A stretch of DNA of 64,000 bases from Cyanidioschyzon merolae (GCA_000091205.1 AP006485.2); one strand, 5' to 3'. Counted from the stretch's first letter, positions 1-60,054 are shown. The notes: generated from the letters alone by a model not told the origin. Numbers and translations are program-made.

Positions 1-1638
1 CGAGCAAGTCGTGGGCGCAGCAGTGCACCCCGCCGTATTGGCGAGGAAAACGCGTAGTGTCGTTCGTTGATGACTTGCTCACAAGCTCATGCCGAACGGT
101 CACCGAACTCGTTACGTCAAATAACCGATTCCATTCGAAAGCCAAATTTTCCTCTCTTCGAGATCATCCCTGAGACGGCACTCGGCAGCAGCACGGTAAT
201 GCGCTAGAGGTATGCTTCAAGAGGCTCCCGTCTCTTCTGTTTACGTGGGGCAGTGGACTTTTTCCGGACCGCGGTCATCGCAGCTATCGCTTCCAATCGA
301 CAGGGCGCAACCGCTTTGCATGAAGAGAGCGTAGACGATTCGACATTCCCTGACTTGCTGTCCCGCCCGGAATTTCGTCCTGGTACGCACTTCATTATGG
401 ATAACAGCGCGTTCGATGAATCCTCTGTCGGGCGGCACAACAAATGCTAGCGTAAACGACGGATTCGGTATGCACGAGGCGCGGTTGCACAGAAAAAGCA
501 GGGGATCCGAGGATGAAGCATCCGGCGCAATAGCGATGGAGAGAAGCGAGGTTAGCCTTCGCAACTAGCTACACGTATGCGTCGAGCGATGAAACAATCC
601 TGGAAGCATGGCACGGGCGGTGCTGTAGGAAGGCATTGTGATGGGCATTCAGGAACACCTGACCACAGTTACTTGTAACAATTACGAAGGGCGCAACGAG
701 GCTGCACGCGAACAAATTGAAAATACCAAGCACGGGTCCTAACCTCCACCTGTGCATGCAACGAATCGACAACAGCAGGATGCTGCGAAATCAAGACTTG
801 CACAGGGCAAACGATACATTCGATTGCCGACAGTGGAGCTGGCGTCACCGGAGTGACCGACTTATGTTAGGCACGATACTAGAGAGAGAGAGCAAAAGGA
901 TTCAGTTGCAGAAAAAACCGACACAGGCTTTTTCTCATGATAATAGTACAACCACCAGCGTTCACAATCGACGCCCGAACTCGCCGAGCGGACCTCTTCC
1001 ATGCAATGCGCTTATGAATGTACTCATGTTCGGCGCGCGAGGCCCCGATTCAAAACAGGAGCTTTCAAGTCGCTTTTCGATACCTGATTCGCCCCCGAGA
1101 TGGACCTGAAGTCACGTGCCTCTCGCGACTTTACTGCTGCATCCCAGCAATCGCTCCTCCAAGCGGTGCGTATCGCAAATCGACTCTGCACAGAAGGCGT
1201 TTTTGCACCCTTGCCCCTTTGCGTACGGGAACGCTCGCCTCTTGGCATCCTGCGCGAACGCCTCCGGACTCCTGGGCGTACACGTTTGCTCCGCGTTCCA
1301 CTGCCACGAGTCTGAAGCACCACCAAAGCCAAAAGCTGAAACACATCCATAACGAATATGACGTAGCGAGATCGCTTGCGAGATGCACAGCGTACCTGTA
1401 CCGACTTGTGCAAACAAGCCTGGCGGCGTCGTGGTGCACTGCCTCGGCACGCGCGTCCTCGAGCCGACGCCCTCTGTATTATAGAAAAGCAGTTCTGCCC
1501 TGGTGCAGCAACCGCACCGGCGCTATAGACGCCATTGCGGTCGCGTTCGGCAGGCACTAGGCAAAAGATAGGACGTATCAAACGATCAGACTATCCGAGA
1601 AGAGGTTTAATTCATGTAACTTGGACGAAGAGGGTTTG

Positions 1639-7122: not shown

Positions 7123-7276
7123 AGCACGCGCTGCGACGCTACCCTACACCCGTGTCAGGTGAAAGGAGCATACTAAAGTGCTCGGTGTTCCTGGATATCG
7201 ATTTTGTCTGAAAGCTTTTTGGTTTGTGGAATATGTATTCTACCATTGTAACAGGAAGGGCATGAGGTTTCATATG

Positions 7277-8487
7277 TAATTAAGGGATTCTCGGCCGTCT
7301 TTTCTGACATGCTTGTTCGACGCTCTGCCGTCGAAACGCAGGGAGGCTCGGGAGCCAAGACGATTTGCAACGAAATCGAGCTAGGGCTGGTAAAACAAGC
7401 GTTAGCACGATTTAATGCATACATACAAGCCTTTTGCATGTGCGTACCCTTCCGTGCAGCACGCTCGATTCACGCATGCTTCCAGTTTTCGACCGCTCTG
7501 TTTCAGGGCTGCTCGTGCGCGCACCAATACCTACTGCGTATGCGGCTCGGCGAAGTGCTCAACGCCATCTCTTGACGGGCTGTTCGCAAACTCGTGCCGA
7601 ACACTCACCGGACCTGTCATCTTCAGATGATCATCGATTTCGTTCGATAGACAAACTCGCACCTCGTACCCGCCATCGACGAGGCGTCATTCCGCAGCAG
7701 CTGCATATCCCGCACGGAATATGCTCACAGAAGCGCTCCCGTCTCTTCGGGTGCATCGAAGGGCGTCACGGAGTCGGACGTTGGTCGTCGCTGCGATGGA
7801 TTTCATAGGAGAGCGCGTACACGCTTTTCAGTGGGAAGGCGTCGGGCGGTCGAAGTCCTGCGACTTGTCCTCCAGCCAGGGGACTCGCTCCGGTGTATTT
7901 TGCATCGCGGATAGCATTGCATTCCAGAAACCCTCGATCGATTGGAACGTCGTTCGCCTGCGTGTCCAGCGCGCAGAGTACTCGCTGAGCGGACAGCGCA
8001 GAAGACGCCCCTAGTCGCAGGGTACGCCAACAGGCGCTGAAACGTGTGATGGCATGCGAGGGAAGCTTTCCTCGCCCGTCGAGTGCATATACCTATGCGA
8101 TGAAGCGTACCCTCCGGAGCCTCAGGGCGGTTCTCCGCGGAGGAGGTTTGGTCGACATATAGGACAACGCAACCAGGCACCAGTCGCATATCTGGAAGAA
8201 GGTGCGTCGACGCAGTGTACAACGAACGTGAGAGTGGAAAGCGATGCGTAGGACACAACCAGCGCCTGCACATGAAATGCGTCGCTCTTTGCTGCAATCG
8301 GTGAACTCGTGGCTTGAATGGTGCCAGCACCACCGTTGGACGGCTTCCAAGAGAGCTGGAGGAAAAACATGAACCATTGTATGTAAAGCCGAAGATAAGA
8401 GAGAGAGAGACAGAGTAGGGAAGCAGTCGCAGAGGAAGCCAGCAAAGGCTGGTGTCGTTGACAATTGGAAGAGACCCAAACTTTAGA
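7277..8487 (+). repeat. RepA copy 1 (1.2 kb dispersed direct repeat, unknown class)
   Basis: Near-identical to 16091..17298; identical ORF translations recur at 7309/16122, 7434/16178 and 7803/16616. It contains a (GA)n tract at about 8396. No recognisable protein domain. Confidence 0.85.
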
Positions 8488-9032
8488 ACGTGCGCCCCAG
8501 TCAGGTATGCGGATCCGTTCCGTTCTATTCCCCCGTGGGTGTAGCAGGGAGGCCGTAGGAGTTCTGGTTGTTTAAAAATATTTTGATGCAAGCCGTGTGT
8601 CGCCGAGAGTTTATCCGTACTTGTTCCGTCATATGCATGCGTACCGCGGCATAGATTTCATGCGGACGTCCACAGTGCTTGCAAGTTCATGCTTCCTACT
8701 CTGGGTGTGAAACGAACCACACAACGGTACCACGGATGGCAAACGTTCTCGGAATCACCCACCCACTGAGCGGGCATCGGGTTTCAGGACGCGAGTCCAC
8801 GATTCCACACCGACTTGCGGCTCAGTCGAAGGGGCGCAACAAATACCTCGGAGGTTTTTACGGATGCATAGGATCCCCAGACTGATACAGCGACTCCATG
8901 GTACGGCCGTCTCACGTCACAAAATTGTGGAGCGGAAAACAGTCTATTGAAAGCATCAGCTTCGAAACTTGAGTTGCTGTATCCATCTGATGGCTGAAGC
9001 TATCTTGGTAATCCTTCAGCAAGCACGACAAC

Positions 9033-15714: not shown

Positions 15715-16090
15715 CAAGTATTTGCTCGGCTCGCAAAGCACGTATTCTTGTCTGATCTAGCCTATCACGCAGCATTGCCCGAGCTCACAGAACGATTCAG
15801 TCTTGGGCGTCGGCACAAAGCATCGCCTCGAGAGCATGCGTTGGAACGCCACGTCGCTTGCGTACTCGACGAAAAGATGAAGTCGCTTGTCCTTCGCCCC
15901 ATCAGCAATGCCATGCCACAAATGGACACGTCATTTCCACAGGCAGAGCGCGTTACCTGCCACAAAGACGCAATTCTTGATCCTGCTATACATGCATTGA
16001 ACTCCACAGTACTCGGGTATTTCGAGAATAAAGTAGTTGGAAGGAGACATGTGGGCGACATGCATTGCAGCACATTTCGTATTCTTACGT

Positions 16091-17298
16091 AATTTAGGGA
16101 TTCTCGGCCGTCTTTTCTGACATGCTTGTTCGACGCTCTGCCGTCGAAACGCAGGGAGGCTCGGGAGCCAAGACGATTTGCAACGAAATCGAGCTAGGGC
16201 TGGTAAAACAAGCGTTAGCACGATTCAATGCATACATACAAGCCTTTTGCATGTGCGTACCCTTCCGTGCAGCACGCTCGATTCACGCATGCTTCCAGTT
16301 TTCGACCGCTCTGTTTCAGGGCTGCTCGTGCGCGCACCAATACCTACTGCGTATGCGGCTCGGCGAAGTGCTCAACGCCATCTCTTGACGGGCTGTTCGC
16401 AAACTCGTGCCGAACACTCACCGGACCTGTCATCTTCAGATGATCATCGATTTCGTTCGATAGACAAACTCGCACCTCGTACCCGCCATCGACGAGGCGT
16501 CATTCCGCAGCAGCTGCATATCCCGCACGGAATATGCTCACAGAAGCGCTCCCGTCTCTTCGGGTGCATCGAAGGGCGTCACGGAGTCGGACGTTGGTCG
16601 TCGCTGCGATGGATTTCATAGGAGAGCGCGTACACGCTTTTCAGTGGGAAGGCGTCGGGCGGTCGAAGTCCTGCGACTTGTCCTCCAGCCAGGGGACTCG
16701 CTCCGGTGTATTTTGCATCGCGGATAGCATTGCATTCCAGAAACCCTCGATCGATTGGAACGTCGTTCGCCTGCGTGTCCAGCGCGCAGAGTACTCGCTG
16801 AGCGGACAGCGCAGAAGACGCCCCTAGTCGCAGGGTACGCCAACAGGCGCTGAAACGTGTGAGGGCATGCGAGGGATGCTTTCCTCGCCCGTCGAGTGCA
16901 TATACCTATGCGATGAAGCGTACCCTCCGGAGCCTCAGGGCGGTTCTCCGCGGAGGAGGTTTGGTCGACATATAGGACAACGCAACCAGGGACCAGTCGC
17001 ATATCTGGAAGAAGGTGCGTCGACGCAGTGTACAACGAACGTGAGAGTGGAAAGCGATGCGTAGGACACAACCAGCGCCTGCACATGAAATGCGTCGCTC
17101 TTTGCTGCAATCGGTGAACTCGTGGCTTGAATGGTGCCAGCACCACCGTTGGACGGCTTCCAAGAGAGCTGGAGGAAAAACATGAACCATTGTATGTAAA
17201 GCCGAAGATAAGAGAGAGAGAGACAGAGTAGGGAAGCAGTCGCAGAGGAAGCCAGCAAAGGCTGGTGTCGTTGACAATTGGAAGAGACCCAAACTTTT
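16091..17298 (+). repeat. RepA copy 2
   Basis: See RepA copy 1; about 99% identical, in the same orientation, 8.8 kb downstream. Confidence 0.85.
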
Positions 17299-17454
17299 TG
17301 TCTATCCAACCGAGTTCGTTAAGTTGACCTACTCCAGAATATTCTAATACGCTCGTATGACTGACGAGCACTCTGACCCTCTGGTGCTACTCTTGGTCTT
17401 CAGCGCCGCGCCCGTTGTCACCTTCTCGTGTGGAGAAAGTGTCTATTTGCAGTA

Positions 17455-24450: not shown

Positions 24451-24530
24451 GCTCGAGTCACAACATGGGTCGGAATGGAAAACAAACACGTAAACCGAAC
24501 CAATAACGCTTCTTCACGCGCCGCATCAAC

Positions 24531-33574: not shown

Positions 33575-34138
33575 TCAGATCCAAACTGAACACTGAACTG
33601 TTCACTCACATCCTCTCTACCAGGTTTTCCGAGTATTTTACGTGGACAGCCCCGCCGTGCAACGAGCACCAACAACAGCTTACACATTCATGCACAGCTC
33701 AAGGATTCCCGATCGCCTCTTCAACGATAATTACCCGACGTCATCGCTCGGCGGCATCCTCTCAAGCTTATGCCGAAATTCCACTGATCTTGTCACGCCA
33801 AAGAATAACCCATTCCGTTCTAGAGACAAACCCTCATCCGCTCTTCGCTGCCGTCCACCATACACCGTTCCACTCCAGAATGATGCGCCTCACGGGGTCC
33901 GCGCCCTCGAGCGCAACCCGAACCGTTTAAAGGTCGACGCTAAGGCAGCCATGAGCACCCTTCGACTGCTGCCAGGGTGCCGGAGGGACGCAAGAGCCCA
34001 GCTCATAGAAAGCCGGATTTGGGGGCAGGAACGAGGATTATGAACAGAAGCTGAAAGAGACCGGAAATGCTGGTTAGGATGGTAACGGGAAGCGATCCCA
34101 GCTGTAGAATGTGTGCCCAAGATAGGTGAGTGGACGTG
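33575..34138 (+). mobile_element. RepC copy 1: miniature internally deleted TnpB/Fanzor-derived element (about 565 bp)
   Basis: One of four near-identical copies. Its 133 aa ORF aligns to F1: the N-terminal part to ...RYFNDGVPGTS (RepC: RLFNDNYPTSS), and the C-terminal part to the Zn-ribbon plus RuvC-III region (RepC LKVDAKAAMSTLRLLPGCRRDARAQLIESRIWGQE against F1 ANQDSNAAINIRKCLVPEKRPAELTRANFVGQP). The 5' end has the hairpin TGAACA-CTGAAC-TGTTCA. The 3' end is ...gataggtgagtggacgtg. Confidence 0.6.
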
Positions 34139-34275
34139 TTCCATTTTAGTTTGATCTTGGTCTGAAGCTCAGCCAGAGCTTTGTATCGTCTGCGCCGAGT
34201 CTCCGATTCTGATTCGGAATCTGTGTTGGCTAAAGCCTCACCGTTCAAAACTGAAATCTAGCTAGTCTTGCGTCT

Positions 34276-35463
34276 ATGCGCAAGCGTGTTCGGGAGACAT
34301 CCCCCAAGGATGCTCCTAAAGAAGACCCAGAAAGTGCACTCACACGGCACGAAGCAGAGGTTTACGATCGACAGCTTAGGCTCTGGGGACACGGCGCTCA
34401 ATGGCGACTCTCACAGAGCTGTGCCTTGATGGTTGTTCTTTCGAGGGGCACATCCGATCTTCTTTGGTTCGAACTCGCTAAAAACCTTGTGCTTGCCGGT
34501 ATTGGACACCTGACTGTCAGCGCTTGGCTTTCGAACCCTGGAAAGTACGAAGGGACCACCGAGAGCGACTCTTGTGCTGTGTGCGGAGAAGGATTGGCAC
34601 CTATTTCAGAGACGCAGGCTTTTAGAGATATCAAGGAAATGAACCCTTTTGTTACAGTGGAGCCTGGACCAGATGCGGGGTCGCTTCTGAAGAGCGTGGA
34701 AAACCTGGTTAACTTGAACGCGAACTGCGTCTGCATCGTTTCACCCGATTTTGAAGAACCGAACCCGCCTTCATCGAATACATCGGATGACATGACCCCA
34801 TGCACACGCCTTGCGGAATTCTGTGCTGAACTGAACATTCCCTGCTTCATTGCTGCGAGCATTGGATACTGTTGCGGTTTCTTCGTCAGCGAACCGGAAG
34901 AAAACGAACACTCGTGTATCCAAGTGGCAGAGGCCTCAAACAAGAGAACGTCTCCGGGAGGCATGCGTTTTCGTAGAGCCGAACAGCATGCAAAACCTGC
35001 GGCCGTACAGGATCCTTCTCAGAATCATCCGCGATGGAAGTCGACCTATGGGAATATTCTGGCCAAATTACGCGACGTATCGCAGGACGACGCTTCTTTG
35101 AATATCGCGAATGAAGACGCATGGCGTCCGTTTCTCAGGTGGATGACGTTCCGGCGGATGCGGATGCCTCATCCCCTCTATAAGGTAATCGGCGCGACAG
35201 CGAGGAGCGCTCTTTTCGCCGAGAATGATGACTCGATCCCAACAAGTGGAAACGTCGTCGATGCGTTGGGCTGGAACTTTCCGCCACTAGCCAAAGTTAT
35301 CGGTGGAATCTGGTCTCTGGAAGTCATCAAAATGCTTGCTGGTATAGATCATACTCAGTATTTCGGGAATTTCTTTTTCTTCGACGGTATGACCGCATGC
35401 GGTGCATTCACTAAGCTCGTTACGAGCGATATTTCGATCGAACCAAGTCGGGCAGATCCATAA
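34276..35463 (+). CDS. SUMO-activating enzyme subunit 1 (SAE1/Aos1), ThiF-family E1
   Basis: YDRQLRLWGHGAQWRL...VLSRGTSDLLWFELAKNLVLAGIGHLTV at the N-terminus, and ...IGGIWSLEVIKMLAGID...NFFFFDGMTACGAF at the C-terminus. Both are characteristic of Aos1/SAE1. Confidence 0.7.
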   Translation: MRKRVRETSPKDAPKEDPESALTRHEAEVYDRQLRLWGHGAQWRLSQSCALMVVLSRGTSDLLWFELAKNLVLAGIGHLTVSAWLSNPGKYEGTTESDSCAVCGEGLAPISETQAFRDIKEMNPFVTVEPGPDAGSLLKSVENLVNLNANCVCIVSPDFEEPNPPSSNTSDDMTPCTRLAEFCAELNIPCFIAASIGYCCGFFVSEPEENEHSCIQVAEASNKRTSPGGMRFRRAEQHAKPAAVQDPSQNHPRWKSTYGNILAKLRDVSQDDASLNIANEDAWRPFLRWMTFRRMRMPHPLYKVIGATARSALFAENDDSIPTSGNVVDALGWNFPPLAKVIGGIWSLEVIKMLAGIDHTQYFGNFFFFDGMTACGAFTKLVTSDISIEPSRADP

Positions 35464-37005
35464 CTCTCCAGCCATGCACGCTCAGTCTGAGGAGAAGACT
35501 GGGATAGCGAATGTTAAAAGCAGTATAATGGTATTCTTTTCGAATCAAGCTCCAACAGGGGCGTCTCATTATGTGATGTTGTCTATTCGTTTCCCGATCG
35601 ATATGCGCCGCGCACAAAACCCACGAGGTTGCTCAGAGCATATGTACCTTTGTCTACATGCCATTCGCAGCTTCCTGATGTTCCTAACAGTTCGCATAAG
35701 GCTAACGGCCGCTCTAACTGCACAGCGGATGAATGCATACGAAGCAGCGGACCGCACTGGGCCGTCTCACGTGTAGAGCAGCGCGAAACTAAGATGCAAA
35801 ATTGGTGTCCAATTCCAGGAACCGGCCTTGAAAACCTGTCCGCTCTGATGTAGGTCGCAAAACGTAACTGAGAGCCCAGCAACCCGTCATATGTCGCCCA
35901 GTTCATGCTGAATAATATTGATTGCCCCTGCGGGTGCAGATGTGTGCATGGTTTGGACAGAGCTTCTATCAGAAACAAATCGTATTGTTTAATCAGGTTG
36001 AACGTCCTTCTTCGTCGCTGACTGTGCAAGCGCATTGTGTGAAAACGAACCAAAAGCATAAAATCTCTCCAAAACCGGAATGTGAATTAAATATTTGTTT
36101 CTGCACAGCACTGTCATGGAGCACTGAGCTTGCTAAGAAATTTTGTGAGAAGTATGGTGCACAGGTTACTTTTTTATTTCGGGACCCATGACGCGCGACG
36201 CTCCCATCCGAATGAATATTTTTAACTCGGGAAGATTGCGACCTCGATGCTTTCCAGCGAGATAACAGTAGACATAGACATTTAAACCAATATAAACGAC
36301 CCCGGGATGTCGCGGATCCGGTGCATTTGAAGATGCAGCGATGTGAATTTGCTTTCCAAGAAAAGTAAATCTAGTTCCACAGATGCGAATACTCTCGGTT
36401 TCATCAGGCTACGAGTATATCTTTTGGATGCGGAGCAAGTCTTGAATAATGCGTTCAGCAGACACAACACAAGTCGGCGCAGCGCCCTTCAGGAATCTTC
36501 ATGGCATGGACCTATTACGTGCTGTGGTAACCTCGCAGAAGCAGCCGGGAGTGGCCGCCACAAGCCCCGGAACTGGAGCTCTTATGGGCTCCTTTCGTTG
36601 CCTCCATGTAGCAAGTAGCATTATGACAACCGCTCTTGTTAAATCTTGCACAACAGAGCATCCATATAAGTAACAGTGAGAAGGAACCAGAGTCTCGAAG
36701 GCACACGGCAAAAGCTGGCCGATATCCAGCAAATTCTTGTGGCTTCTTTAACTGCATCTCGTTACTGAGTGCTAGGGAGCTCCGACATCCTGTTTACGCC
36801 TTCACAGAGACCGAGCAGAAAAAAGTCGTACACGTGCGCATCGAGTGCCGAATGCCCTTGGACCAGGATATTCCACTTGACTCTTTCGCAGTGTGGCTTT
36901 TGATGTAGTTTTTAGAAGGTCCGAGACAAGATGAAGCTATCGAAGCCGTTTGTGCGACTTTCGCGTATGCCAGCTCTGCAAACACGCTGTAACTGCAACA
37001 AACTT

Positions 37006-37570
37006 ATCAGATACAAGCTGAAAACTGAACTGTTCACTCACATCCTTTCTACCAGGTTTTCCGAGTATTTTTCGTGGACAGCCCCGCCGTGCAACGAGCA
37101 CCAACAACAGCTTACACATTCATGCACAGCTCAAGGATTCCCGATCGCCTCTTCAACGATAATTACCCGACGTCATCGCTCGGCGGCATCCTCTCAAGCT
37201 TATGCCGAAACTCCACTGATCTTGTCACGCCAAAGAATAACCCATTCCGTTCTAGAGACAAACCCTCATCCGCTCTTCGCTGCCGTCCACCATACACCGT
37301 TCCACTCCAGAATGATGCGCCTCACGGAGTCCGCGCCCTCGAGCGCAACCCGAACCGTTTAAAGGTCGACGCTAAGGCAGCCATGAGCACCCTTCGACTG
37401 CTGCCAGGGTGCCGGAGGGACGCAAGAGCCCAGCTCATAGAAAGCCGGATTTGGGGGCAGGAACGAGGATTATGAACAGAAGCTGAAAGAGACCGGAAAT
37501 GCTGGTGAGGATGGCAACGGGAAGCGATCCCAGCTGTGGAATGTATGCCCATGATAGGTGAGTGGACATG
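37006..37570 (+). mobile_element. RepC copy 2
   Basis: Identical 133 aa ORF translation (37074..37475) to copies 1 and 4. The terminal ...gtgagtggacATG abuts, and provides, the first ATG of the Hsp78 ORF. Confidence 0.6.
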
Positions 37571-39973
37571 TTCCATATTCAGTCTGACAGCCGCTCTGCC
37601 GCTTTCCGAGAAGCTGCGAGCGCGCGCATTCCGGGTGCGTCGAGATTCGCCGCGAGAATTCCGGCAGGCATCTCACCAGATCGCATTGCGCGAATCGAAA
37701 TTGGTTTTGGGATCAAAATTTGCGTTGGACATGTTCATTCTTCGCTACGAGAAATGCAAGGAAACCAGGACTCGCAACAAGAAGATCCCCTTAAGGTTTA
37801 CGGACGAGATCTGGTCGCCGAGGCTGAGGCAGGTCGACTGGATCCGGTGATTGGTCGCGATGCTGAGCTGCGGCGTGTGATTCAGATCCTGTCAAGGAGG
37901 ACCAAAAACAATCCGGTTCTAATCGGCGAGCCCGGTGTGGGCAAGACAGCAATTGTTGAAGCTCTGGCACAGCGTATCGTACGTGGTGACGTCCCGGAAG
38001 CGTTGTCAGGTACCCGAGTAGTCGCTTTGGATATGGCTGCTTTGATTGCTGGAGCAAAGTATCGGGGCGAGTTCGAGGAGCGTCTGAAGGGTATAATTAA
38101 GGCTGTAAAGGAGTCCGCGGGAAAAATCATTCTATTCATCGACGAAATCCATACTGTTCTCGGTGCAGGCTCCACTAGTGGTGAAAGCATGGATGCAGCG
38201 AATATTCTGAAACCGGCACTCGCTCGCGGCGAGCTCAGATGTATCGGTGCAACTACTGTTGACGAGTATAAGAAGCACGTGGAGAAGGACGCAGCGTTTG
38301 AAAGGCGGTTTCAACAAGTCTACGTATCTGAACCCTCCGTTGAAGAGACGATATCAATTCTGCGGGGCCTTCGACCCGTATACGAGAGTTTCCACGGTGT
38401 TCGAGTAACTGACGCGAGCCTCATCGCAGCAGCACAACTGAGCGATCGGTATATTCGCGACCGCTTTCTACCAGACAAAGCAATCGATCTCCTAGATGAG
38501 GCATGCAGCGCTATCCGGGTACAGCTAGACTCGCAACCAGAAATTATCGATCGCCTCGAAAGGCGGAAGCTGCAGCTCGAGATTGAGGAAACAGCGCTGC
38601 AACGGGAGAAAGACAAAGCGAGCAAGCAACGTCTCGAAAGCGTTCGGGAAGAAATAGCGAAAATAGATGAAGAACTTCGACCCCTGAAGAAGAAGTTTGA
38701 GAAGGAGATGCAGAAGGTGAATGAAGTGCGACACATCAGGTCGAAAATTGAGGAGCTGAAACGAAAAGCGGAGCTTGCCGAGCGGCGTCGGGACCTTGCG
38801 CTCGCCTCTGACCTACGATTTGGTGCGATTCCGGAGTTGCAATCACGACTGAGTCAACTTACGCGAGAAATTGATGAAGAGCGATCCCAGCGAGCATTAC
38901 ATGCGAGTTCGCGACTTTCAGGCACAGAGGCAGAAAGTGCTGTTCTGGTTTCAGAAACAGTGGAGCCCGCGCACATTGCCGAAGTAGTCTCGCGCTGGAC
39001 CGGCATACCCGTGTCGAGACTAACGCAAGGAGAACGAGAACGCCTGCTGCATCTCCGAGAGCGCCTCATGTCGCGAATTGTTGGCCAGGCGCAAGCCATA
39101 TCTGCTATAGCGGATGCGATTCTTCGATCCCGTGCTGGATTTGGCCGTGAGCAACAGCCTATTGGCTCTTTTCTGTTCTTAGGACCCACTGGTGTTGGCA
39201 AGACTGAGACGGCCAAAGCGCTCGCCGTGGAGCTTTTTGACACGGAGAAGAACATTGTGCGCATCGATATGAGCGAATACATGGAGAAACATGCGGTCGC
39301 CCGGCTCATTGGATCACCGCCGGGCTATGTCGGCTACGAAGAGGGCGGCCAGCTCACGGAGGCGATTCGGAGACGTCCTTACTCCGTGGTGCTCCTAGAC
39401 GAGGTGGAAAAGGCGCACCCGGAAGTCTTGAATATACTTCTCCAAGTTCTAGATGATGGAAGGCTCACGGATGGGCACGGGAAGGTCGTCGACTTTAGCA
39501 ACTGCGTCATCATCATGACATCGAATATCGGCAGCAAGTATATCCTCGATCTCAACGGCAGCGCAAAAGATGCTGAACCGTTTGTAATGGAAGAGGTTCG
39601 CCGTACTTTCCGCCCAGAGTTCTTGAATCGGCTGGATGCGATTGTGTTGTATAACGCTCTCGGTGAGGTACAACTAGCTGCAATTGTCCGTTTGCAACTT
39701 GCGGACGTGGGCAAGCGCCTTGCGCGTGAGCAGATTATGCTGCAGTGCACCGATGCTGCTGTAATTCGCATCCTGAATGAGGCGAAGGCGAATCCTGCGT
39801 ACGGCGCTCGGCCTATTCGACGCTTCATCGAGCAAGAGCTCGTGACAGAGTTGAGCCGTATGCATATTTCTGGTGAATTGCTCAGCGGTGGCCGTGTCAT
39901 CGTGGATGTTGATCAGCGTGGGGACTGGATATTCCGGGTCGAAAATCCCAGCCTGATGGATGACGACGAATGA
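37568..39973 (+). CDS. Hsp78/ClpB-type AAA+ disaggregase (organellar; no N-domain, presequence-like N-terminus)
   Basis: Colinear with yeast Hsp78 from [48 protein letters not shown] through both NBDs ([15 protein letters not shown]..., sensor-2 GARPIRR). The listed ORF start is GTG at 37562. The first ATG is at 37568 ([23 protein letters not shown]...). The Arg/Ser-rich start is presequence-like. Confidence 0.85.
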
Positions 39974-40043
39974 TCACGCCCTTCTGTTACCGCACTATGC
40001 AGCCGTTTGAAGCAATATTGGCATAATAATACCTAAACCCTCA

Positions 40044-40607
40044 TCAGATACAAGCTGAACACTGAACTGTTCACTCACATCCTCTCTACCAGGTTTTCCG
40101 AGTATTTTACGTGGACAGCCCCGCCGTGCAACGAGCACCAACAACAGCTTACACATTCACGCACAGCTCAAGGATTCCCGATCGCCTCTTCAACGATAAT
40201 TACCCGACGTCATCGCTCGGCGGCATCCTCTCAAGCTTATGCCGAAATTCCACTGATCTTGTCACGCCAAAGAATAACCCATTCCGTTCTAGAGACAAAC
40301 CCTCATCCGCTCTTCGCTGCCGTCCACCATACACCGTTCCACTCCAGAATGATGCGCCTCACGGGGTCCGCGCCCTCGAGCGCAACCCGAACCGTTTAAA
40401 GGTCGACGCTAAGGCAGCCATGAGCACCCTTCGACTGCTGCCAGGGTGCCGGAGGGACGCAAGAGCCCAGCTCATAGAAAGCCGGATTTGGGGGCAGGAA
40501 CGAGGATTATGAACAGAAGCTGAAAGAGACCGGAAATGCTGGTTAGGATGGTAACGGGAAGCGATCCCAGCTGTAGAATGTGTGCCCAAGATAGGTGAGT
40601 GGACATG
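40044..40607 (+). mobile_element. RepC copy 3
   Basis: 133 aa ORF at 40111..40512 with one substitution (TFTHSS). Same termini as the other copies. Confidence 0.6.
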
Positions 40608-40868
40608 ATCTATTTTTCTTCTGACACAGTTGCAGCTGCTGCGCGAAAACAGCGCGTAAACAGAGTGGCCTCGCTTTCAAAGAGCTACGTCAGACACTGT
40701 GATTTTAGGCGCTCGATATCTTAGCGCATAACTTAAGCTTCATAAACTTAGTGGGTAACTGCACACGAGCGCAGTAGCGTGCCCACGTAGCAGCCTGCTG
40801 CAGGCACGAATAGTTCACGAGAGGCAGCGTTTGCTTCGAGTGCTCGCACAAACGAGGCGTCAGGCCTC

Positions 40869-41501
40869 ATGGGAGGCCGCCAAAGCAAACCGCACAGCAG
40901 CTCTCCGCCTGGAGCCAAGCAGCGACACACGGCACTGGAGCAGAGCTTGGTGCAACCTAGAGCCTACACAGACAATGAGTGGGACGAGGTTATTTCACGC
41001 GTTCGCGCTCACGAGCGGCAGCTATTCTCCAAGAAACAACAGCTCTTTGAGGCGGCAAGTACCGCATACAAAAAAGGACAGGGAGCAGAGGCAAAGCGGC
41101 TCTCTCGAACTGCTCATCAAACCGATGAGAAGTATCGGAGGGCACGTCAGGAAGCCTCGGTAACAATTTTGCACCTAAGGAACCATGGGAAACCTGCGGA
41201 TACTTTAGACCTACATGGCCAATATGTTGAGGAGGCTCTCTCGTTCACCAAACAACGACTCAAGGAGCTGCGGAATATAAACAATGCGCAACGTACATCG
41301 AGTCTGTTGATCATAACAGGTGCCGGACACCATAGCGAAGACGGTCGAGCGAAAATTCGGCCGGCAGTACTGAATTTTCTCCGGAAGAAGGGATATTCCT
41401 TCAAAGAAGAAGGTCCTGGGGCTTTCAGGGTTCATTTGGGCGCGGAAAGCACAGAGGGATGCTTCGCGTCTCTACTTCGGATGCTGGGCCTGAAAAAGTG
41501 A
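40869..41501 (+). CDS. DUF1771-Smr domain protein (second paralogue), N-terminal MGxxxS myristoylation-like start
   Basis: Smr domain: TLDLHGQYVEEALSFTKQRL...LLIITGAGHHSEDGRAKIRPAVLNFLRKKGYSF. A preceding DUF1771-like helix (EAKRLSRTAHQTDEKYRRARQEA) is present. The ATG is at 40869. Confidence 0.55.
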   Translation: MGGRQSKPHSSSPPGAKQRHTALEQSLVQPRAYTDNEWDEVISRVRAHERQLFSKKQQLFEAASTAYKKGQGAEAKRLSRTAHQTDEKYRRARQEASVTILHLRNHGKPADTLDLHGQYVEEALSFTKQRLKELRNINNAQRTSSLLIITGAGHHSEDGRAKIRPAVLNFLRKKGYSFKEEGPGAFRVHLGAESTEGCFASLLRMLGLKK

Positions 41502-41532
41502 AGCCTATGGCAGTCATCATCAATGGACCTGG

Positions 41533-42282
41533 TCAGTGCATATCCTGGTGAACGGATGGATTCAATGTCAGGTCATATGCCATGTCGGGATCCTCAGACT
41601 CGTGGTCGCCGCAAGGAACGAAAGCAGGTATCGCAGTTAGCTCTTCTCGAGAGCTCGCGTACGAACGCCCTACTGTGAAACCTCTACACACGATGAAACT
41701 CTCAAGGCTTGAATTACGGCTCGAACGGGGTTTTGCGATATACAGTTCCCGAAAATAGGGACGTATACGAGCATAGAGAAGCGCCGACTCATAGCCGCGA
41801 AATATTTTTGCGACGAACTTACCGCCTTCCGCAAGCATGGCTACGCAGAAACGGAGAGCAGCTTGAACAAGTTCGCACTGCACGTATTCGTCAAGATCGT
41901 GCAGACCTGTAACGTCAGGGGCACCGTCGCTAAGTACCAGATCAGCTCTGCGACCACCGAGTGCGCAACGAACACGCTCCAGCGTATCTTCCTGAGTGAT
42001 GTCTCCTTGCAGGGTACAGACTCCTGGAATGGGAGCTATGTCCTGCAGATCAACAGCAACGGCACAGTTTCCCTCCGAAGCGCTCTCTGGCAGACGGAGC
42101 TTCTGACTTACAACCTGCGACCAACTTCCAGGGGCTGCACAAAGATCAGCAACGGTGCGAACACCGGTAAAAATCCCAAACTCATCGTCCAGCTGAAGTA
42201 GCTTGAAAGCGGAACGAGCCCGGAAGCCTTCCTCTTTTGCTTTTCGGTAGTAAACATCCCGCTTATCCTTACTTCTCGTCAT
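41533..42282 (-). CDS. FtsJ/RrmJ-family 2'-O-ribose RNA methyltransferase (Trm7/FTSJ1-like)
   Basis: MTRSKDKRDVYYRKAKEEGFRARSAFKLLQLDDEF...DLCAAPGSWSQV matches the Trm7/FtsJ N-terminus and SAM-binding motif. The listed start is TTG; the ATG is at 42280-42282. Confidence 0.75.
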   Translation of the reverse strand: MTRSKDKRDVYYRKAKEEGFRARSAFKLLQLDDEFGIFTGVRTVADLCAAPGSWSQVVSQKLRLPESASEGNCAVAVDLQDIAPIPGVCTLQGDITQEDTLERVRCALGGRRADLVLSDGAPDVTGLHDLDEYVQCELVQAALRFCVAMLAEGGKFVAKIFRGYESALLYARIRPYFRELYIAKPRSSRNSSLESFIVCRGFTVGRSYASSREELTAIPAFVPCGDHESEDPDMAYDLTLNPSVHQDMH

Positions 42283-43372
42283 ACTATGAGCTGCGTGTGC
42301 AGGACTCGACAAGTAGGTCTACAACCAGAGCATTTGTTTGAATGTGCTGCGTCGCAGCCTTGCGACAGATGAGAAATTTCAGCTCTTCGTTGCAGGTTCC
42401 GCCGTGTCATGTCGTCTGTTGCATCTGCTATCCGATAAGCAGTGCATCTCATCATCACAGCTGGCCCAACCAGAATCGTTGAAGTTGCGCTACTCACTAG
42501 GAACGAAGTGCTCATACGAGTAGCCACGTCCCAGCTGACAAGCATTTATGGCACAGCCTTCGTGACTCATTCCTTTGTCCCCTACAAGTGCTTGAACATT
42601 ATCGCCTTAAGATGAAAAAAACACAAACGCGCCTGTGAAATACTGGTACCCTTCCTGAACCTGTGAGTTGGACACATATCGAGAGTTAGTCCACTGACGG
42701 TTGGGCACTCTGCCTCTGATACATAGTGGTGAATTGAACGATTCACCGCTCCGCGCCTTGGAACGCAGGAATAGCGCAGTAGCTATCCCTTTCCATCTTA
42801 TTTTTAGGTGCATGGGCGCGTGTTTAGTGCTAGAGCAGCTCAACAGCGTCAATTCGATACGAACAAGGTAGTCGCACTTCAGGGGTCATAAAGGTCTGTA
42901 AGGTTCGCGGTACTGTCGCGACGGCACTCGAGGTACGCTTTGACATCGTAGAGCTGCAAAGCCTAATCGTTGGTTCGAAGGGATAGCTAAATCGGTGTAG
43001 TACTCCATCACGATACGCAGCTCCAAATATACTCGCTAGACGGCTACAGTTGCGTCGTTGTAGCGGCATTGCAGGCCAACACAGGCAGTTCAGCATCAAT
43101 ATACACCGTCTTTGCGAGCAAGGCGGACTTGTCTTACCTACCGGCACGGATGCTTCGAGGCTTTGTGGTAATGCTGGGCGTTTCGGCATCTGCGACGAAG
43201 CGCCGATATGCACCGGGGGGCGTCGCCGCTTAGTAGAACAAATAAAGATTCAAATCTTGCACTCCACAGAACAATGCGTTGCACTAGCAGGTGATAAACT
43301 AGCGGAGTTGCAGGCTGGAACCGAAAGCTTCCATGAAAAATATGCGAATCAGAACGAAACGCTATACCTGTA

Positions 43373-43936
43373 CCGGATCCAAACTGAACACTGAACTGTT
43401 CACTCACATCCTCTCTACCAGGTTTTCCGAGTATTTTTCGTGGACAGCCCCGCCGTGCAACGAGCACCAACAACAGCTTACACATTCATGCACAGCTCAA
43501 GGATTCCCGATCGCCTCTTCAACGATAATTACCCGACGTCATCGCTCGGCGGCATCCTCTCAAGCTTATGCCGAAACTCCACTGATCTTGTCACGCCAAA
43601 GAATAACCCATTCCGTTCTAGAGACAAACCCTCATCCGCTCTTCGCTGCCGTCCACCATACACCGTTCCACTCCAGAATGATGCGCCTCACGGAGTCCGC
43701 GCCCTCGAGCGCAACCCGAACCGTTTAAAGGTCGACGCTAAGGCAGCCATGAGCACCCTTCGACTGCTGCCAGGGTGCCGGAGGGACGCAAGAGCCCAGC
43801 TCATAGAAAGCCGGATTTGGGGGCAGGAACGAGGATTATGAACAGAAGCTGAAAGAGACCGGAAATGCTGGTGAGGATGGCAACGGGAAGCGATCCCAGC
43901 TGTAGAATGTGTGCCCAAAATAGGTGAGTGGACATG
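43373..43936 (+). mobile_element. RepC copy 4
   Basis: 133 aa ORF at 43440..43841 identical to copy 2. The 5' junction is ...ccggatccaaactgaacactg; the 3' end is ...taggtgagtggacatg. Confidence 0.6.
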
Positions 43937-44940
43937 ATCCTTTTTCTTCTGGCATCAGAGTAGCCGGCTGATGTATGCGAGTCACCTTCGACCGCAACAA
44001 TTCCGATTTATGCAATGCTGTAAATGGAGCATGCATGAGCGACTGCAGTGGGAGCACCTATCAGTCGAGCAAGCGTTCTTCTTTAGAGCTTTTATGCAGC
44101 ACACGGGGCCTCTTTTGCTGATGACTGCTTCTGTCGGAGATCTTTTGAGCTGGGCTGAACCTGCACAGCGGGAACGTTTAGAGGAATGTTGCGCAGACCA
44201 TTACCCGGATTTTGAGACTAGCGTAGCTGCTCCAAATAGATGCCATTGGTGAATATTGTGTTCCAACTCAATTTCGTTTCAATTCCGCTGCGGAGTATAA
44301 CAGGAAATCGAAATCACTATGCAATGTATGGATTAGAGCGCAGACGAATTTCCTAAAGGATGTATTCTTTATCGAGCAGTGCGATGAGGACTGCACTCCT
44401 TGTTCAGGTTATTCATGCCCCAGTACTCAGATGCCAGGGAACACTGAAAGAAACGAGTAGATGCGCTTCAGGCAGAAAACCGATTCTCTCGAAGACTGCT
44501 TGCAGGTCAATGGTAAGAAAAGACATGTTGATCACGTAATGGTAAGCAAAGCGCGACGACTGCAGACGCCACTGGCGTCTCTTTTTCTCAACAGCCTGTC
44601 CGCGTGGTCCTGCAAACACCGGGATGAAGTCCCAAAAAAGTCCCACTTCACTCACGGCCATCTTCCATCGAAATCGCAAAGACAGATTATCATGATATTC
44701 GCGATCCGCATGGAGCAGAGGAACGTCGATTTGTTTTCTCAGACGATGATAGTTCCTTCGGCAGAGGTAGTCCGAGCGTATACGTTGTTTCTCGGAGATG
44801 TGGCCTTTGTATGTAAGATCGAACTTGAAGTGAACTCCGACATCATCTGTTCTAGCTGCAGTGGATTCTTTTAGAGGCCCCAACTTCGCTCATAGAGAAG
44901 GCTTATACAACAGCGTCCACGTTGTCGAATTATTCAAAAC

Positions 44941-45159
44941 TTGTACTTGACTTCTGGGGACGTCCATCTTTTAGACTACCTGGCAAGTGGCCATTACCCT
45001 TGCGTTCGAGCTATTGCGGATTCTGTCCGTTTTGAACTGCCTTCTTTCTCTCTTTACACTTCGTTTTACAACCCTATCGAAGGAGTATTTTGTATCCAAA
45101 AACGCAATGATCGCTCCGTTGCGCGAACCGGCCAGGCGTTCAGAATGGTGGCACACTAG
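44941..45159 (+). mobile_element. F4: short fragment of the TnpB/Fanzor-like family (RuvC-II region)
   Basis: YNPIEGVFCIQKRNDRSVARTGQAF against F1 FIPIEGVFCILKSNDHSTGRIAETF. Confidence 0.4.
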
Positions 45160-53890: not shown

Positions 53891-54488
53891 AAGTCAGCAC
53901 TAAATGGAAAAGATCTACGCAGACTGACACCGGCGTACATTCTCGTGTTTGGGTTGCTTCCCAATGAAGTCCAAACCAGCCTTTGAAGTATTTTTCTCTA
54001 CATCCGCTTCCTTCTTGCTCGATCCTGGTACCGACTTTAAATACGCTTGTTTCACATACAACTCCAGTTTTGATGGTAGCAGCCGAAAGATGTTGATGGC
54101 AGTGTTAGGGTCCCTGTTTCGGTGCCTCCGCCTGTAGTCCCAGCATTTGATGCTCATATGGCATTTGCCATCTGCGTTGAGCTCGCCAGTTTTATAATCG
54201 CTGTACATTGCCTCGTTGCGCTCTTCGTGGATGTGAAACTATTCTGCGGTTAGGTGTTCCTATGCGTCCACCACAGCTCGCAATCCGTGGGCGGCCCTGT
54301 GGCGCTTGAATGCTTGCGTCAGCGTATGGTCCACGTCGTTGATGGGTACAGAAGGCTCTCCTCGGTGCCGTCCGCCAATTCCGCGCCCGATACCGTACCC
54401 AGCAATCAGGAGCTTTTTCCGCACGACAACCTCAACGAGTGTTCTGTCCGGCGCACACGCAAGTTTATGGTCTTATTTTTCGTAAGGG
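53891..54488 (-). mobile_element. RepD copy 1: second TnpB/Fanzor-like family, 3' portion (Zn ribbon + RuvC-III)
   Basis: Minus-strand ORF 53915..54208: ...GKCHMSIKCWDYRRRHRNRDPNTAINIFRLLPSKLELYVKQ matches the C-x6-C...R-D-x-N-x-A-I-N-I signature. An upstream frame encodes KKLLIAGYGIGRGIGG...TQAFKRH. The copy is truncated relative to copy 2 at about 54488. Confidence 0.5.
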
Positions 54489-54784
54489 CACCATTCGGAA
54501 CGCTGGAGGGGTCCTATTCTCCCCTGACGAGAAGACCGGATCACGTGCTGGGATCAAATTGAAATTGGCGTTGCGATTTTGCGCTTTGCCGACAAATTAA
54601 ATTCGATGGCCGAAACCATTTCCGAAAGTTTGCGCATTGCCCGCTGGTATTCACAGAAATTTACTAGAATATTGTTCGGAGAAAGAGTCATTTTTATTGT
54701 AAAATGCTTTACGTTCGCATCGATATTATTCCCGACGGATAATTTACTTCAGGAAATGTTTGGCACGCCTCTACCGCGCGGTCT

Positions 54785-58488: not shown

Positions 58489-59450
58489 AGTCAGCACTAA
58501 ATGGAAAAGATCCACGCAGACTGACACCGGCGTACATTCTCGTGTTTGGGTTGCTTCCCAATGAAGTCCAAACCAGCCTTTGAAGTATTTTTCTCTACAT
58601 CCGCTTCCTTCTTGCTCGATCCTGGTACCGACTTTAAATACGCTTGTTTCACATACAACTCCAGTTTTGATGGTAGCAGCCGAAAGATGTTGATGGCAGT
58701 GTTAGGGTCCCTGTTTCGGTGCCTCCGCCTGTAGTCCCAGCATTTGATGCTCATATGGCATTTGCCATCTGCGTTGAGCTCGCCAGTTTTATAATCGCTG
58801 TACATTGCCTCGTTGCGCTCTTCGTGGATGTGAAACTATTCTGCGGTTAGGTGTTCCTATGCGTCCACCACAGCTCGCAATCCGTGGGCGGCCCTGTGGC
58901 GCTTGAATGCTTGCGTCAGCGTATGGTCCACGTCGTTGATGGGTACAGAAGGCTCTCCTCGGTGCCGTCCGCCAATTCCGCGCCCGATACCGTACCCAGC
59001 AATCAGGAGCTTTTTCCGCACGACAACCTCAACGAGTGTTCTGTCCGGCGCACACGCAAGTTTATGGTCTTATTTTTCGTAAGGGCTCTGTGGAAAGCGG
59101 TGTCGTCCTTGATAAAGCGAGTACCGGAAGGAAAATCATCAAATTCGAAGATCAAGTCTGGAAGTTTCGACCCGAGAACGCTCTCTTTATGCAACCTGGC
59201 GACGCATTCTCCTGTGAAAGTGACTGCCACGATGACTGGAGTCCATCTCAAAGACCCTTTTCCAAGCACACGGCAGAGACGAGGGCCCCTTGGGGCATAC
59301 TCCGTGGTGCGTGTCATGCTGCAGGCGAATGCTGTTTCGTCGATGACCGCAAAAGAGTGGCGGGATTTGTCCCTCGAACGGGATCGATTATCAGAAGTGA
59401 CAAGTTCGGTGAACGCTCTGCATGATGTTGTGAGCAAGTCGTCAAAGGAC
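58489..59450 (-). mobile_element. RepD copy 2 (longer): TnpB/Fanzor-like family 2
   Basis: 58489..59087 is near-identical to copy 1, with the same ORF translations at 58497..58805 and 58546..58734. It extends upstream on the minus strand through ORF 59003..59437 (…SFAVIDETAF…), which may cover the RuvC-II region. Confidence 0.45.
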
Positions 59451-60054
59451 TAGGTTGCGTGCTTTTCCTCACCAATCCAACCGCGCGAATTGCTGCACCC
59501 ACGAGATGACCTGGAACAGAGTGATCAACAACTTGAAGAGCGCCTGGTTTGAGCATGCTGCGCATGAGGAAATGAGAAGAGTGGAGAATTATACGTCTGC
59601 ACTGAATAATGAGGTTGCTTATGTTCTTTTACGAACCATTGCTCGAGTGCTCTGCGAATCATCTTGATTGCGGCAAGGTAAAGAATTCCAGCGGCAAATA
59701 GTTGATGGAGCCACTTCGGAAAGACGACAGAGAATTCTAGAGCTACTTATGAATCCGTGCATCCTTATGGCTGCACTTTGAATGTCACGGCTGTACATCT
59801 AACAGAGGTTTGGAAAGATATCGAGAGGAAAAAGCTCCATCTAGTTCAGTGCTCCATGTTGATCTGACATGGGCGTCGTCGTCGAATGAACTCGTATCAC
59901 CGCTGTGCGCGTATCGGGGCCCGTGACTACGCGAGCTCGGGTTCCGCGCCGGCGAAGTTCAGACCGCGAGCTCCGTATTGGTTAATCCATCTTCGAGAGC
60001 CGCGACAAAGAAAGCTTTTCCAGGATAACTTTTGAGGCCGAATCTCGTACAGAA

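Follow-up and report, generated by a model that had tools for sequence, protein, structure and literature searches.

Mariner-type elements carrying a Fanzor1 gene have been described as PGv-1, PUl-1 and PUl-4, and derivatives that lack one gene and keep the mariner ends are also on record (Bao & Jurka 2013, PMC3627910). A [TS][TS]-x-x-C4 zinc ribbon followed by the RuvC-III motif RD·N·A·NI constitutes the Fanzor1/TnpB signature (Bao & Jurka; PMC3627910). TE-N2_CMe, published for Cyanidioschyzon merolae, corresponds to a 5' fragment, lacks inverted repeats and is present in ~70 copies (Bao & Jurka 2013, PMC3627910). The RepC repeats described here lie in the same organism, a hot-spring red alga, in a stretch of 64,000 nucleotides (GCA_000091205.1 AP006485.2) that is referred to below as the window. 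They are probably old, non-coding, non-autonomous DNA transposon relics, derived by deletion from a mariner/IS630-Fanzor1 element and homogenised by ectopic gene conversion.

Four RepC copies are found, all on the plus strand, with start-to-start spacings of 3432, 3037 and 3329 bp and pairwise identities of 96.9-98.1% over ~571-587 aligned bp (Table 1). The first-pass annotation had thus correctly recognised four co-oriented, near-identical copies; its length of ~565 bp becomes 580-581 bp when the ends are set at the TCAGA...TCTGA termini. These termini belong to imperfect inverted repeats of ~30 bp (TCAGA…/…TCTGA): reverse-complemented, the 3' end (…GTGAGTGGAC[A/G]TGTTCCAT…TCTGA, ~34119-34154) pairs with the 5' repeat. 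A TA dinucleotide precedes three of five RepC 5' ends and follows none of the 3' ends, the termini being too diverged for a target-site duplication to be judged. When copies and flanks are aligned, the copies match and the flanks are unalignable; the intervening genes are unrelated, which excludes an origin by segmental duplication. A solo LTR, a tRNA or a known RNA family was also dropped as an identity for RepC, since TG…CA ends, Rfam matches and tRNAs are all lacking: a search of the window returned no tRNA and no Rfam match at gathering score.

Table 1. Coordinates of the RepC copies, of features within them and of related elements in the window
Feature	Coordinates	Strand	Remarks
RepC copy 1	33575..34154	+	580 bp; intergenic, between the divergent RPA1 and SAE1-like genes
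RepC copy 2	37007..37587	+	581 bp; upstream of Hsp78
RepC copy 3	40044..40624	+	581 bp; starts 70 bp past the Hsp78 stop
RepC copy 4	43373..43952	+	580 bp; between the FtsJ gene and a dead CMe-1-type Fanzor1 element
5' imperfect terminal inverted repeat	33575..33609	+	RepC copy 1; TCAGATCCAAACTGAACACTGAACTGTTCACTCAC
Homogenised core	33601..34101	+	copy-1 coordinates; 7 variable sites in 501 bp, 4 copies
133-codon GTG-started frame, copy 1	33642-34043	+	117 aa from the ATG at 33690
133-codon GTG-started frame, copy 2	37074-37475	+	RepC copy 2
133-codon GTG-started frame, copy 3	40111-40512	+	RepC copy 3
133-codon GTG-started frame, copy 4	43440-43841	+	RepC copy 4
Deletion junction	33919..33920	+	metagenome relative L013:9973-11035 has 547 extra bp
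L3, larger dead family member	58494..59881	-	~1.39 kb; colinear with RepC
RepA1, larger dead family member	7269..8530	+	99.4% identical to RepA2 across 7269-8484
RepA2, second RepA block copy	16082..17344	+	colinear with RepC
RepD1	53891..54489	-	599-bp duplicate (99.8%) of the L3 3' part at 58488-59086
Short family fragment	49..191	+	matches RepC model positions 190-290

RepC belongs to a deletion series. Relative L013 consists of RepC in register plus 547 bp at a single junction, the extra segment encoding the remaining DDE core, a VIVGDRG strand, T·AMCHWC and CHPC, and nhmmer places RepC colinear with L3, RepA and RepD, the larger window elements, L3 among them, being matched from model position 5 to 587. 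The segment deleted from RepC comprises the greater part of the DDE core beyond the initial strands, together with the Fanzor RuvC-II and zinc ribbon. In L3, the order of motifs is IDETAF…DDTAFH (DDE_3-like), LLIAGYGIG… and NRDPNTAINI (Fanzor1-like). RepC had been annotated as a MITE-like element derived by internal deletion, with both ends kept, which the extra segment of L013 and the colinearity bear out. It had also been described as a Fanzor protein minus RuvC-I/II; here the internal deletion stands, whereas the parent was not a plain Fanzor and the lost part was not RuvC-I/II. Mismatch rates between family members are equal at the three codon positions, which points to neutral decay of the family.

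The ancestry of this lineage appears to be chimeric. The N-terminal half of the parent is predicted to be a DDE transposase of the IS630/Tc1-mariner type. An exhaustive phmmer search gave 32 relatives of the L3 segment, every one a short decayed ORF. Pfam DDE_3, matched by 9 of 28 relatives (best E = 9.2e-7), is the only family to recur; all of these matches fall below the Pfam gathering score and the third catalytic residue is missing, one relative, P0135, reaching 26.4 bits (E = 7e-6) against a cut-off of 28.6 bits. The family consensus IDETAF…GYAPRG·R…VIAAIAS…FIMDNIAFHKS…RTEYSP has the D, DNxxFH and YSP motifs. The DDE domain of the fused frame ends at ~position 121 of 146, and the Fanzor1 part starts at the pre-RuvC-II strand. 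A purely DDE parent, for which the first L3 match was weak (E = 0.18), was later upheld for the N-terminal half only, and for that same half a purely Fanzor parent is ruled out by its DDE_3-like sequence. Among 1.84 billion representative proteins there is no intact autonomous partner or transposase relative.

The C-terminal half of the parent is assigned to Fanzor1 at the level of motifs (RuvC-II, zinc ribbon and RuvC-III), with modest empirical p-values. The C-terminal halves were compared to a profile of Fanzor1 proteins from green algae (supplement 3 of PMC3627910); the alignment is colinear and matches the columns TS··C··C, C··C and RD·N·A·N. Equal scores were obtained by 3/2000 shuffles for L3, 5/2000 for L013el and 3/2000 for P0131, and by 1/2000 for a decayed genuine Fanzor1 used as a control. 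The zinc ribbon/RuvC-III signature is likewise present at motif level, as T·AMCHWC…CHPC…HDSN in L013el, ETSKRCVAC in P0131 and NRDPNTAINI in L3. The RuvC-I aspartate in a G·DPG-type strand is missing 125-275 residues upstream, where the sequence is DDE_3-like (IDETAF); the genuine Fanzor1 of the window carries VSVDPGNTN. The RepC ORF itself scores -1.9 bits against the profile and is equalled by 1014/2000 shuffles. Pfam and NCBIfam gave no TnpB match on the stitched C-termini, nor on genuine Fanzor1 ORFs, no significant alignment to the F family was obtained by hhalign with the C-termini of the RepC lineage, and sequence searches of the PDB yielded spurious matches only. The RepC lineage is unrelated to the CMe-1-type Fanzor1 of the window, a relic at 45276-47408 which matches CMe-1 residues 4-728 at ~50% identity (E = 3e-178): tblastn with CMe-1 has no match on RepC, L3 or RepA. 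Identity of RepC with the published CMe-1A/TE-N2_CMe was rejected as well, the 5' 630 bp of CMe-1A, equivalent to TE-N2_CMe, matching 1456-1625 and not RepC. Every Fanzor1 copy within the window is dead.

Copies 1-3 end upstream of plus-strand host genes, at 121 bp from the ATG of the SAE1-like gene (34276), 166 bp from the true start of Hsp78 (37754) and 244 bp from the start codon of the Smr/DUF1771 gene. The first-pass annotation had claimed such a position for all four copies, but copy 4 points at a dead Fanzor1 element beginning at ~44266; nothing supports the 93-codon ORF at 43971 as a gene, and the nearby FtsJ gene is on the minus strand, with its start at 42282. The start of Hsp78 had also been misplaced at 37568. 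This ATG is located within copy 2, in its 3' terminal repeat, and opens an in-frame, non-orthologous extension of the Hsp78 ORF; the true start is 37754, because the orthologues, of 739 aa, begin at residues matching MQGNQD. Copy 3 sits at a synteny breakpoint relative to Cyanidiococcus.

A scan of metagenomes found RepC at five sites, the four of the window and one other locus, in a search requiring exact 8-residue peptide words, which diverged copies would escape. This is far from the high copy number typical of MITEs and is too few to assess a genome-wide bias of orientation or position. All metagenome strains recovered carry RepC at the same sites. It is missing from the regions that are syntenic in Cyanidiococcus yangmingshanensis and in a second lineage, and the intergenic regions of these outgroups contain a single weak tblastx match to RepC (E = 4e-4) and no other relative. 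No empty-site allele was recovered, exact-protein look-ups of Smr, the SAE1-like protein, RPA1 and ORF 46250-46912 being without a match, so past mobility of RepC is something that we infer rather than see.

The high identity of the copies had been attributed either to mobilisation in trans or to gene conversion, and it is conversion that we favour on the pattern of variable sites. By a conservative count, 13 of 70 terminal positions vary, versus 7 in the 501-bp core, and with the end-registration columns the terminal figure becomes 29 of 80 (Fisher p = 3e-21). The core occurs in two alternating haplotypes, one shared by copies 1 and 3 and the other by copies 2 and 4, and site partitions are incompatible along the repeat, the 5' end giving {14|23}, five core sites {13|24} and the 3' end {12|34}. 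Where an orthologous RepC copy of another strain departs from the window copy, it does so only in patches matching other paralogues, and strain L011, 1.4% diverged, has its own shared variants and a long version at site 1; this cross-strain evidence comes from short-read metagenome contigs which may be chimeric inside repeats, and the L010 and L011 contigs change flank at RepC position ~515. A MITE-like burst, in which an active transposase or Fanzor elsewhere mobilised the four copies in trans within about the last 1-2% of divergence, would account for an overall identity of 97-98% with cores up to 99.8% identical, for the retention of both ends with their imperfect inverted repeats and, through local hopping, for the clustering. 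Nevertheless, we regard it as unlikely. Recent mobilisation is contradicted because the termini are diverged and the same four sites are filled in all strains recovered, including the one at 1.4%; uniform decay after insertion is unable to yield termini far more diverged than the core, and neither the five sites of the metagenome scan nor the lack of an intact transposase relative in the protein set searched fits a burst. The RepA pair, which was considered for the same core-versus-edge comparison, has abrupt block boundaries and is equivocal as an example of conversion.

Present function of RepC seems absent: the analysis yielded no supporting evidence for an RNA, protein or promoter role. 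Co-option as a promoter, upstream element or 5'-UTR of the downstream genes, conversion and selection together keeping the copies alike, would agree with the orientation of copies 1-3 towards start codons 121-244 bp away, with their retention by all recovered strains and with a 3' end where a look-alike of an AG|GTGAGT donor and an ATG that reads outwards are present. It is nonetheless improbable, as copy 4 faces a dead transposon, the orthologous genes in Cyanidiococcus and the second lineage work without RepC, and the larger relatives L3 and RepD are not aimed at gene starts. Moreover, the same orientation of all four copies has a chance probability of ~1/8, and with one gene per 3.4 kb insertions survive almost only in upstream intergenic DNA. 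The specific version in which the copies are common regulatory modules upstream of adjacent housekeeping genes (the SAE1-like gene, Hsp78 and Smr), a transposon-derived promoter cassette maintained by conversion and selection, we consider decidedly improbable. A guide-RNA satellite, with the RepC 3' part as an omega-RNA-like scaffold for a Fanzor1 made elsewhere and the host flank as guide, is harder still to credit. RepC does retain everything from RuvC-III through to the 3' end; this is the usual location of guide RNAs in TnpB and Fanzor elements and the most recognisably conserved part between diverged family members, but its folding energies are no better than those of shuffles (z = +0.51, -0.23, +0.31), five diverged 3' regions give a weak consensus fold (-10.2 kcal/mol) with a covariation term that is a penalty, Rfam has no match and the Fanzor1 copies of the window are all dead; an omega-RNA-like structure was accordingly rejected. 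As for a protein, the ORF of 133 aa annotated earlier is indeed common to the four copies, but only from a GTG, the ATG version having 117 aa. About two thirds of the frame corresponds to the N-terminus of an IS630/Tc1-mariner-type DDE transposase and ~15 codons (NRLKVDAKAAMSTLRLL) to the Fanzor1 RuvC-III region. It would be a fusion relic of a transposase N-terminus and a Fanzor1 RuvC-III tail, with no sign of being a gene. To be a real small gene, e.g. a domesticated transposase DNA-binding domain working as a repressor, it would have in its favour a frame open over 148 codons in all four copies and a 547-bp deletion that happens to leave both parts in frame. Yet the sole early ATG is changed to ACG in copy 3, the five ORF differences among copies are three non-synonymous and two synonymous, no Pfam domain is found, and among 5.8 billion proteins the single matching cluster has all its members from the RepC locus; the lack of codon-position bias in family divergence tells against this highly improbable reading and also argues against the fused DDE-Fanzor1 frame ever having been one working protein.

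Under the relic interpretation, with conversion as the homogenising process, a mariner/IS630-type element carrying a Fanzor1 gene would have lost its middle, fusing the N-terminal two thirds of the transposase to the C-terminal third of Fanzor1. The resulting element of ~1.4 kb, now represented by L3 and RepA, would have spread and then decayed neutrally, while one sublineage may have lost ~250 bp (L013 type, ~1.13 kb) and afterwards another 547 bp to become RepC. Its presence in four consecutive gene-upstream intergenic regions could be due to local hopping combined with the loss of within-gene insertions in a compact genome. Ectopic conversion among the four neighbouring copies would then keep the interiors alike, rarely extending into the last 25-50 bp beside the non-homologous flanks.

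RepC is ordinary mobile-DNA decay and not a new system. It adds a second Fanzor-associated transposon lineage in Cyanidiales, mariner/IS630-linked and distinct from the published CMe-1A, which is of limited importance. It is also a clean small case of old near-identical repeats homogenised by conversion rather than recently mobile, and a caution that repeat identity may mislead in dating transposon activity or inferring an active Fanzor. RepC coincides with structural differences between strains and species and therefore such repeats probably contribute to rearrangement in compact genomes. Concerted evolution of dispersed repeats by ectopic gene conversion is a general phenomenon, and RepC resembles it in its homogenised interiors, diverged edges, mosaic partitions and paralogue variants shared across strains, with nothing distinctive. 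Like Stowaway-like Tc1/mariner MITEs, RepC arose by internal deletion, keeps both termini, has lost its coding capacity and lies near genes; it differs from them in being present in very few copies, in having diverged termini with no clear TA duplication, and in a uniformity stemming from conversion and not from a burst. With CMe-1A/TE-N2_CMe it shares the host group and a Fanzor1-linked element with a short derivative of ~0.6 kb, but RepC arose through internal deletion, has inverted ends and is present in about five copies. A further parallel is with PGv-1, PUl-1 and PUl-4, which also combine a Tc1/mariner-superfamily transposase and Fanzor1 in one element within terminal inverted repeats. 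The latter, however, have oomycete and giant virus hosts, whereas the RepC lineage, whose ends yielded no clear TA duplication and of which no intact member was found, belongs to a Cyanidiales red alga and its two genes survive only as one fused decayed frame.

The four RepC copies, short MITE-like repeats, lie in direct orientation with start-to-start spacings of 3432, 3037 and 3329 bp in a repeat search of the window and with pairwise identities of 96.9–98.1% over ~571–587 bp for all pairs in self-BLAST, confirming the four near-identical direct copies reported in the first-pass annotation. When the copies were aligned together with 270-bp flanks, similarity ended at both element boundaries and the flanks were unrelated; therefore, RepC is not part of a segmental duplication. 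The 133 aa ORF attributed to RepC is present as a frame in all four copies, but its start codon is GTG; the ATG-started version is only 117 aa long and its ATG is lost in copy 3.

A profile of the four copies gives weaker, colinear matches in larger, dead elements of the same lineage, L3 and RepA, and in a partial duplicate, RepD. Metagenome searches with the RepC frame recovered nine loci, eight of which map to the four window sites. The exception, the long-form relative L013, consists of the RepC element at 94–97% identity plus 547 bp located exactly at the equivalent of the 33919/33920 junction. This comparison bears out the earlier proposal of a MITE-like internal-deletion derivative and shows that the deletion was precise. 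RepC retains both element ends, ~100 codons of the transposase N-terminus, ~15 from the RuvC-III region and the 3′ untranslated part. Separately, two copies of a 1216-bp block from a strongly decayed member of the family occur at 7269-8484 and 16082-17297 (99.4% identity); the boundaries of this block are abrupt and lie inside the element, away from its ends.

RepC copies, larger elements of the RepC lineage and CMe-1-family Fanzor1 sequences in the window
Feature	Position	Strand	Basis
RepC copy 1	33575-34154	+	TCAGA…TCTGA termini
RepC copy 2	37007-37587	+	TCAGA…TCTGA termini
RepC copy 3	40044-40624	+	TCAGA…TCTGA termini
RepC copy 4	43373-43952	+	TCAGA…TCTGA termini
L3, larger RepC-lineage element	58494-59881	-	RepC profile match, colinear
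RepA, larger RepC-lineage elements	7269-8530 and 16082-17344		RepC profile match, colinear
RepD, partial duplicate			RepC profile match
CMe-1-family Fanzor1, dead (frameshifts and stops)	45276-47408	+	tblastn, residues 4-728, ~50% amino-acid identity
CMe-1-family C-terminal relic	29479-29940	-	tblastn with CMe-1
CMe-1-family C-terminal relic	50080-50304	-	tblastn with CMe-1
CMe-1-family C-terminal relic	63570-63911	-	tblastn with CMe-1

Sequence comparisons suggest that the parent of RepC is a chimeric mariner/IS630–Fanzor1 element. The longest stop-free segment of L3 (59006-59449, minus strand) was compared exhaustively with 1.84 billion representative proteins by HMMER, yielding 32 relatives, every one a short decayed ORF. 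Pfam DDE_3, the IS630/Tc1-mariner transposase core, was matched by nine of 28 relatives (best E = 9.2e-7), with no other Pfam family recurring among these 28. The strands of the family consensus (IDETAF, GYAPRG·R, VIAAIAS, FIMDNIAFHKS and RTEYSP) are those expected for DDE_3. The DDE_3 match ends at about position 121 of 146, short of the third catalytic residue, and in every member a segment with Fanzor1 hallmarks begins ~10–25 residues further on, in the order LLIAGYGIG…, (E)TS··C··C, C··C and RD·N·A·NI. Because this C-terminal half had no match in curated libraries, in PDB searches or in hhalign comparisons with the window's own Fanzor family, we built a Fanzor1 profile from six green-algal Fanzor1 C-termini (Bao & Jurka 2013, supplement, PMC3627910). 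Sequences of the RepC lineage align colinearly with it at the diagnostic columns. Composition-matched shuffles scored as well in 3/2000 cases for L3, 5/2000 for L013el (a family member of L013), and 3/2000 and 57/2000 for the lineage members P0131 and P0152, respectively, while RepA1 was not significant in this test; a decayed genuine Fanzor1 control was matched by 1/2000 shuffles and a second control was not significant. Motif-level evidence of limited power thus supports a Fanzor1 derivation for the C-terminal half. RepC alone scores nothing against the profile. The Fanzor parentage originally proposed for RepC holds, at motif level, for the C-terminal half of the parent, but the N-terminal half is DDE_3-like and most of RepC is transposase-derived.

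The DDE/Fanzor junction is identical in all family members. Mismatch rates between L3 and RepA1, L013el or L013b (a further family member of L013) are equal at all three codon positions (0.38–0.50; chi-square p = 0.14–0.99), which argues against a once-functional fused DDE/Fanzor frame. Divergence within the RepC family has been neutral, as it would be for a deletion derivative that never had coding function.

The high identity of the copies had been ascribed to either recent mobilisation in trans or gene conversion. Variation among them is very unevenly distributed: only seven variable sites fall in the 501-bp core, against 13 of 70 positions in the terminal 22 and 48 bp when counted conservatively and 29 of 80 when end-registration columns are included (Fisher p = 3e-21, computed on 29/80). 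Parsimony-informative sites support incompatible groupings along the element, uniting copies 1 and 4 against 2 and 3 at the 5′ end, 1 and 3 against 2 and 4 at five core sites, and 1 and 2 against 3 and 4 at the 3′ end. A recent burst followed by uniform decay could not have given rise to such a pattern. Gene conversion between ectopic copies, with tracts that seldom reach the limits of homology, can do so and is the better of the two explanations; the supposed recency is contradicted by the core/edge contrast and by the occupancy of the sites in every strain recovered. Metagenome contigs add support to gene conversion, bearing in mind that assemblies of repeats may be chimeric. In these contigs, the only differences between the window copy and same-site copies from other strains are at positions that define paralogues; site 4 carries site-2-type alleles in the window and site-1/3-type alleles in contig L009; and a strain diverged by 1.4% (L011) has private variants common to its RepC copies and a long form at site 1. 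Contigs from three samples (L010:3535, L011:4391, L013:11035) exit RepC at about position 515, passing from three different upstream contexts into one common flank of at least 5.3 kb, so that either the copies have recombined ectopically or the repeat has given rise to chimeric assemblies.

The window is compact, intron-poor DNA of a photosynthetic eukaryote, with Pfam-assigned genes for RPA1, ThiF/SAE1-like, Hsp78/ClpB, Smr, FtsJ, Nup84, PsbQ and a plastid-type TRCF. Exact matches to its PsbQ protein are present in hot-spring metagenome contigs, and its Hsp78 protein shares 92% identity with the Cyanidiococcus yangmingshanensis protein and 80% with the Cyanidium caldarium protein. RepC occupies all four sites in every strain recovered from the metagenome contigs. 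The gene order PGM, 366-aa gene, RPA1, SAE1, Hsp78 is kept in Cyanidiococcus and a second lineage, and the syntenic regions of both contain no RepC-like sequence. Thus, the insertions predate the sampled strains and postdate the split from these two lineages.

No evidence supports a present function for RepC. RNA folding energies are not distinguishable from those of shuffles (z = +0.51, -0.23 and +0.31), five diverged 3′ regions give only a weak consensus fold, with the covariation term acting as a penalty, and Rfam and tRNA scans were empty. The only protein cluster, among 5.8 billion, that matches the RepC ORF is made up entirely of members from the same locus; the ATG is lost in one copy, and the differences among copies are three non-synonymous and two synonymous. 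Co-option of RepC as a promoter or upstream element of downstream genes has a low probability. The promoter-proximal, co-oriented layout invoked for this, with each copy just 5′ of a plus-strand gene, is real for copies 1–3, but copy 4 points at a dead Fanzor1 element and no gene. The Hsp78 start in the first-pass annotation, 37568, falls within the 3′ terminal repeat of copy 2 and is ruled out as a conserved start by the 739-aa orthologues, which place the true start at 37754 (MQGNQD…); with this revision, copies 1, 2 and 3 have their 3′ ends 121, 166 and 244 bp, respectively, upstream of genuine start codons. Against co-option, the layout has a chance probability of ~1/8, the larger RepC relatives lack it, and in so compact a genome insertions are tolerated almost nowhere but in upstream intergenic DNA. 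The interval 37568-37753 is stop-free and in frame with Hsp78, adding 62 codons, and the resulting 807-aa protein is the one predicted by gene callers in metagenomes.

Direct repeats of 599 bp (53891-54489 and 58488-59086) are 99.8% identical, and the intervening 4.6 kb, with a 304-aa gene and the gene for an L27A-type ribosomal protein, is missing from metagenome contig L003, in what looks like a repeat-mediated deletion or duplication polymorphism. At L003:10072-10146 and L004:5030-5104, the right end of the window (~63960-64000) is followed by 73 bp and then by a 99% match to 20514-27152, representing either a strain structural variant or a large duplicated segment past the window. The genes next after Hsp78 in Cyanidiococcus are S8e(-), TRCF(+) and TFIIS(-), which in the window lie at 61870 (+), 4114 (-) and 1621 (+), respectively. 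RepC copy 3 sits at the resulting synteny breakpoint behind Hsp78, in the interval 39974-40868. A 653-bp repeat (9033-9685 and 61067-61719, 99.2% identity) adjoins the TRCF side (7123-9766) and the S8e side (61067-61869) of the split.

The published C. merolae Fanzor1 family, CMe-1, is also represented in the window, with the best tblastn match at E = 3e-178. A ~950-bp 5′ module common to 29881-30831, 44266-45212 (inverted) and 50553-51486 (66–68% identity) shows that the Fanzor1 copies at ~29.5–30.8 kb and ~50.0–51.5 kb are internal-deletion derivatives too. In the 342-aa metagenome ORF P0136, a CMe-1-type Fanzor1 C-terminus (MEFANKDFNAAINII…) runs directly into an L3-type transposase segment (LLTSSCRKLT…IAIDEAE…); therefore, the two families are adjacent or nested in some related genome. 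The 5′ 630 bp of CMe-1A, the counterpart of the published short element TE-N2_CMe, has short matches at 1456-1625 (-), directly upstream of the TFIIS/PHD gene, and at 18320-18364 (-), with 73–80% identity. Neither this 5′ part nor CMe-1 matches RepC, and CMe-1 likewise gave no tblastn match to L3 or RepA in the window. RepC therefore represents a lineage separate from the published CMe-1A/TE-N2_CMe.
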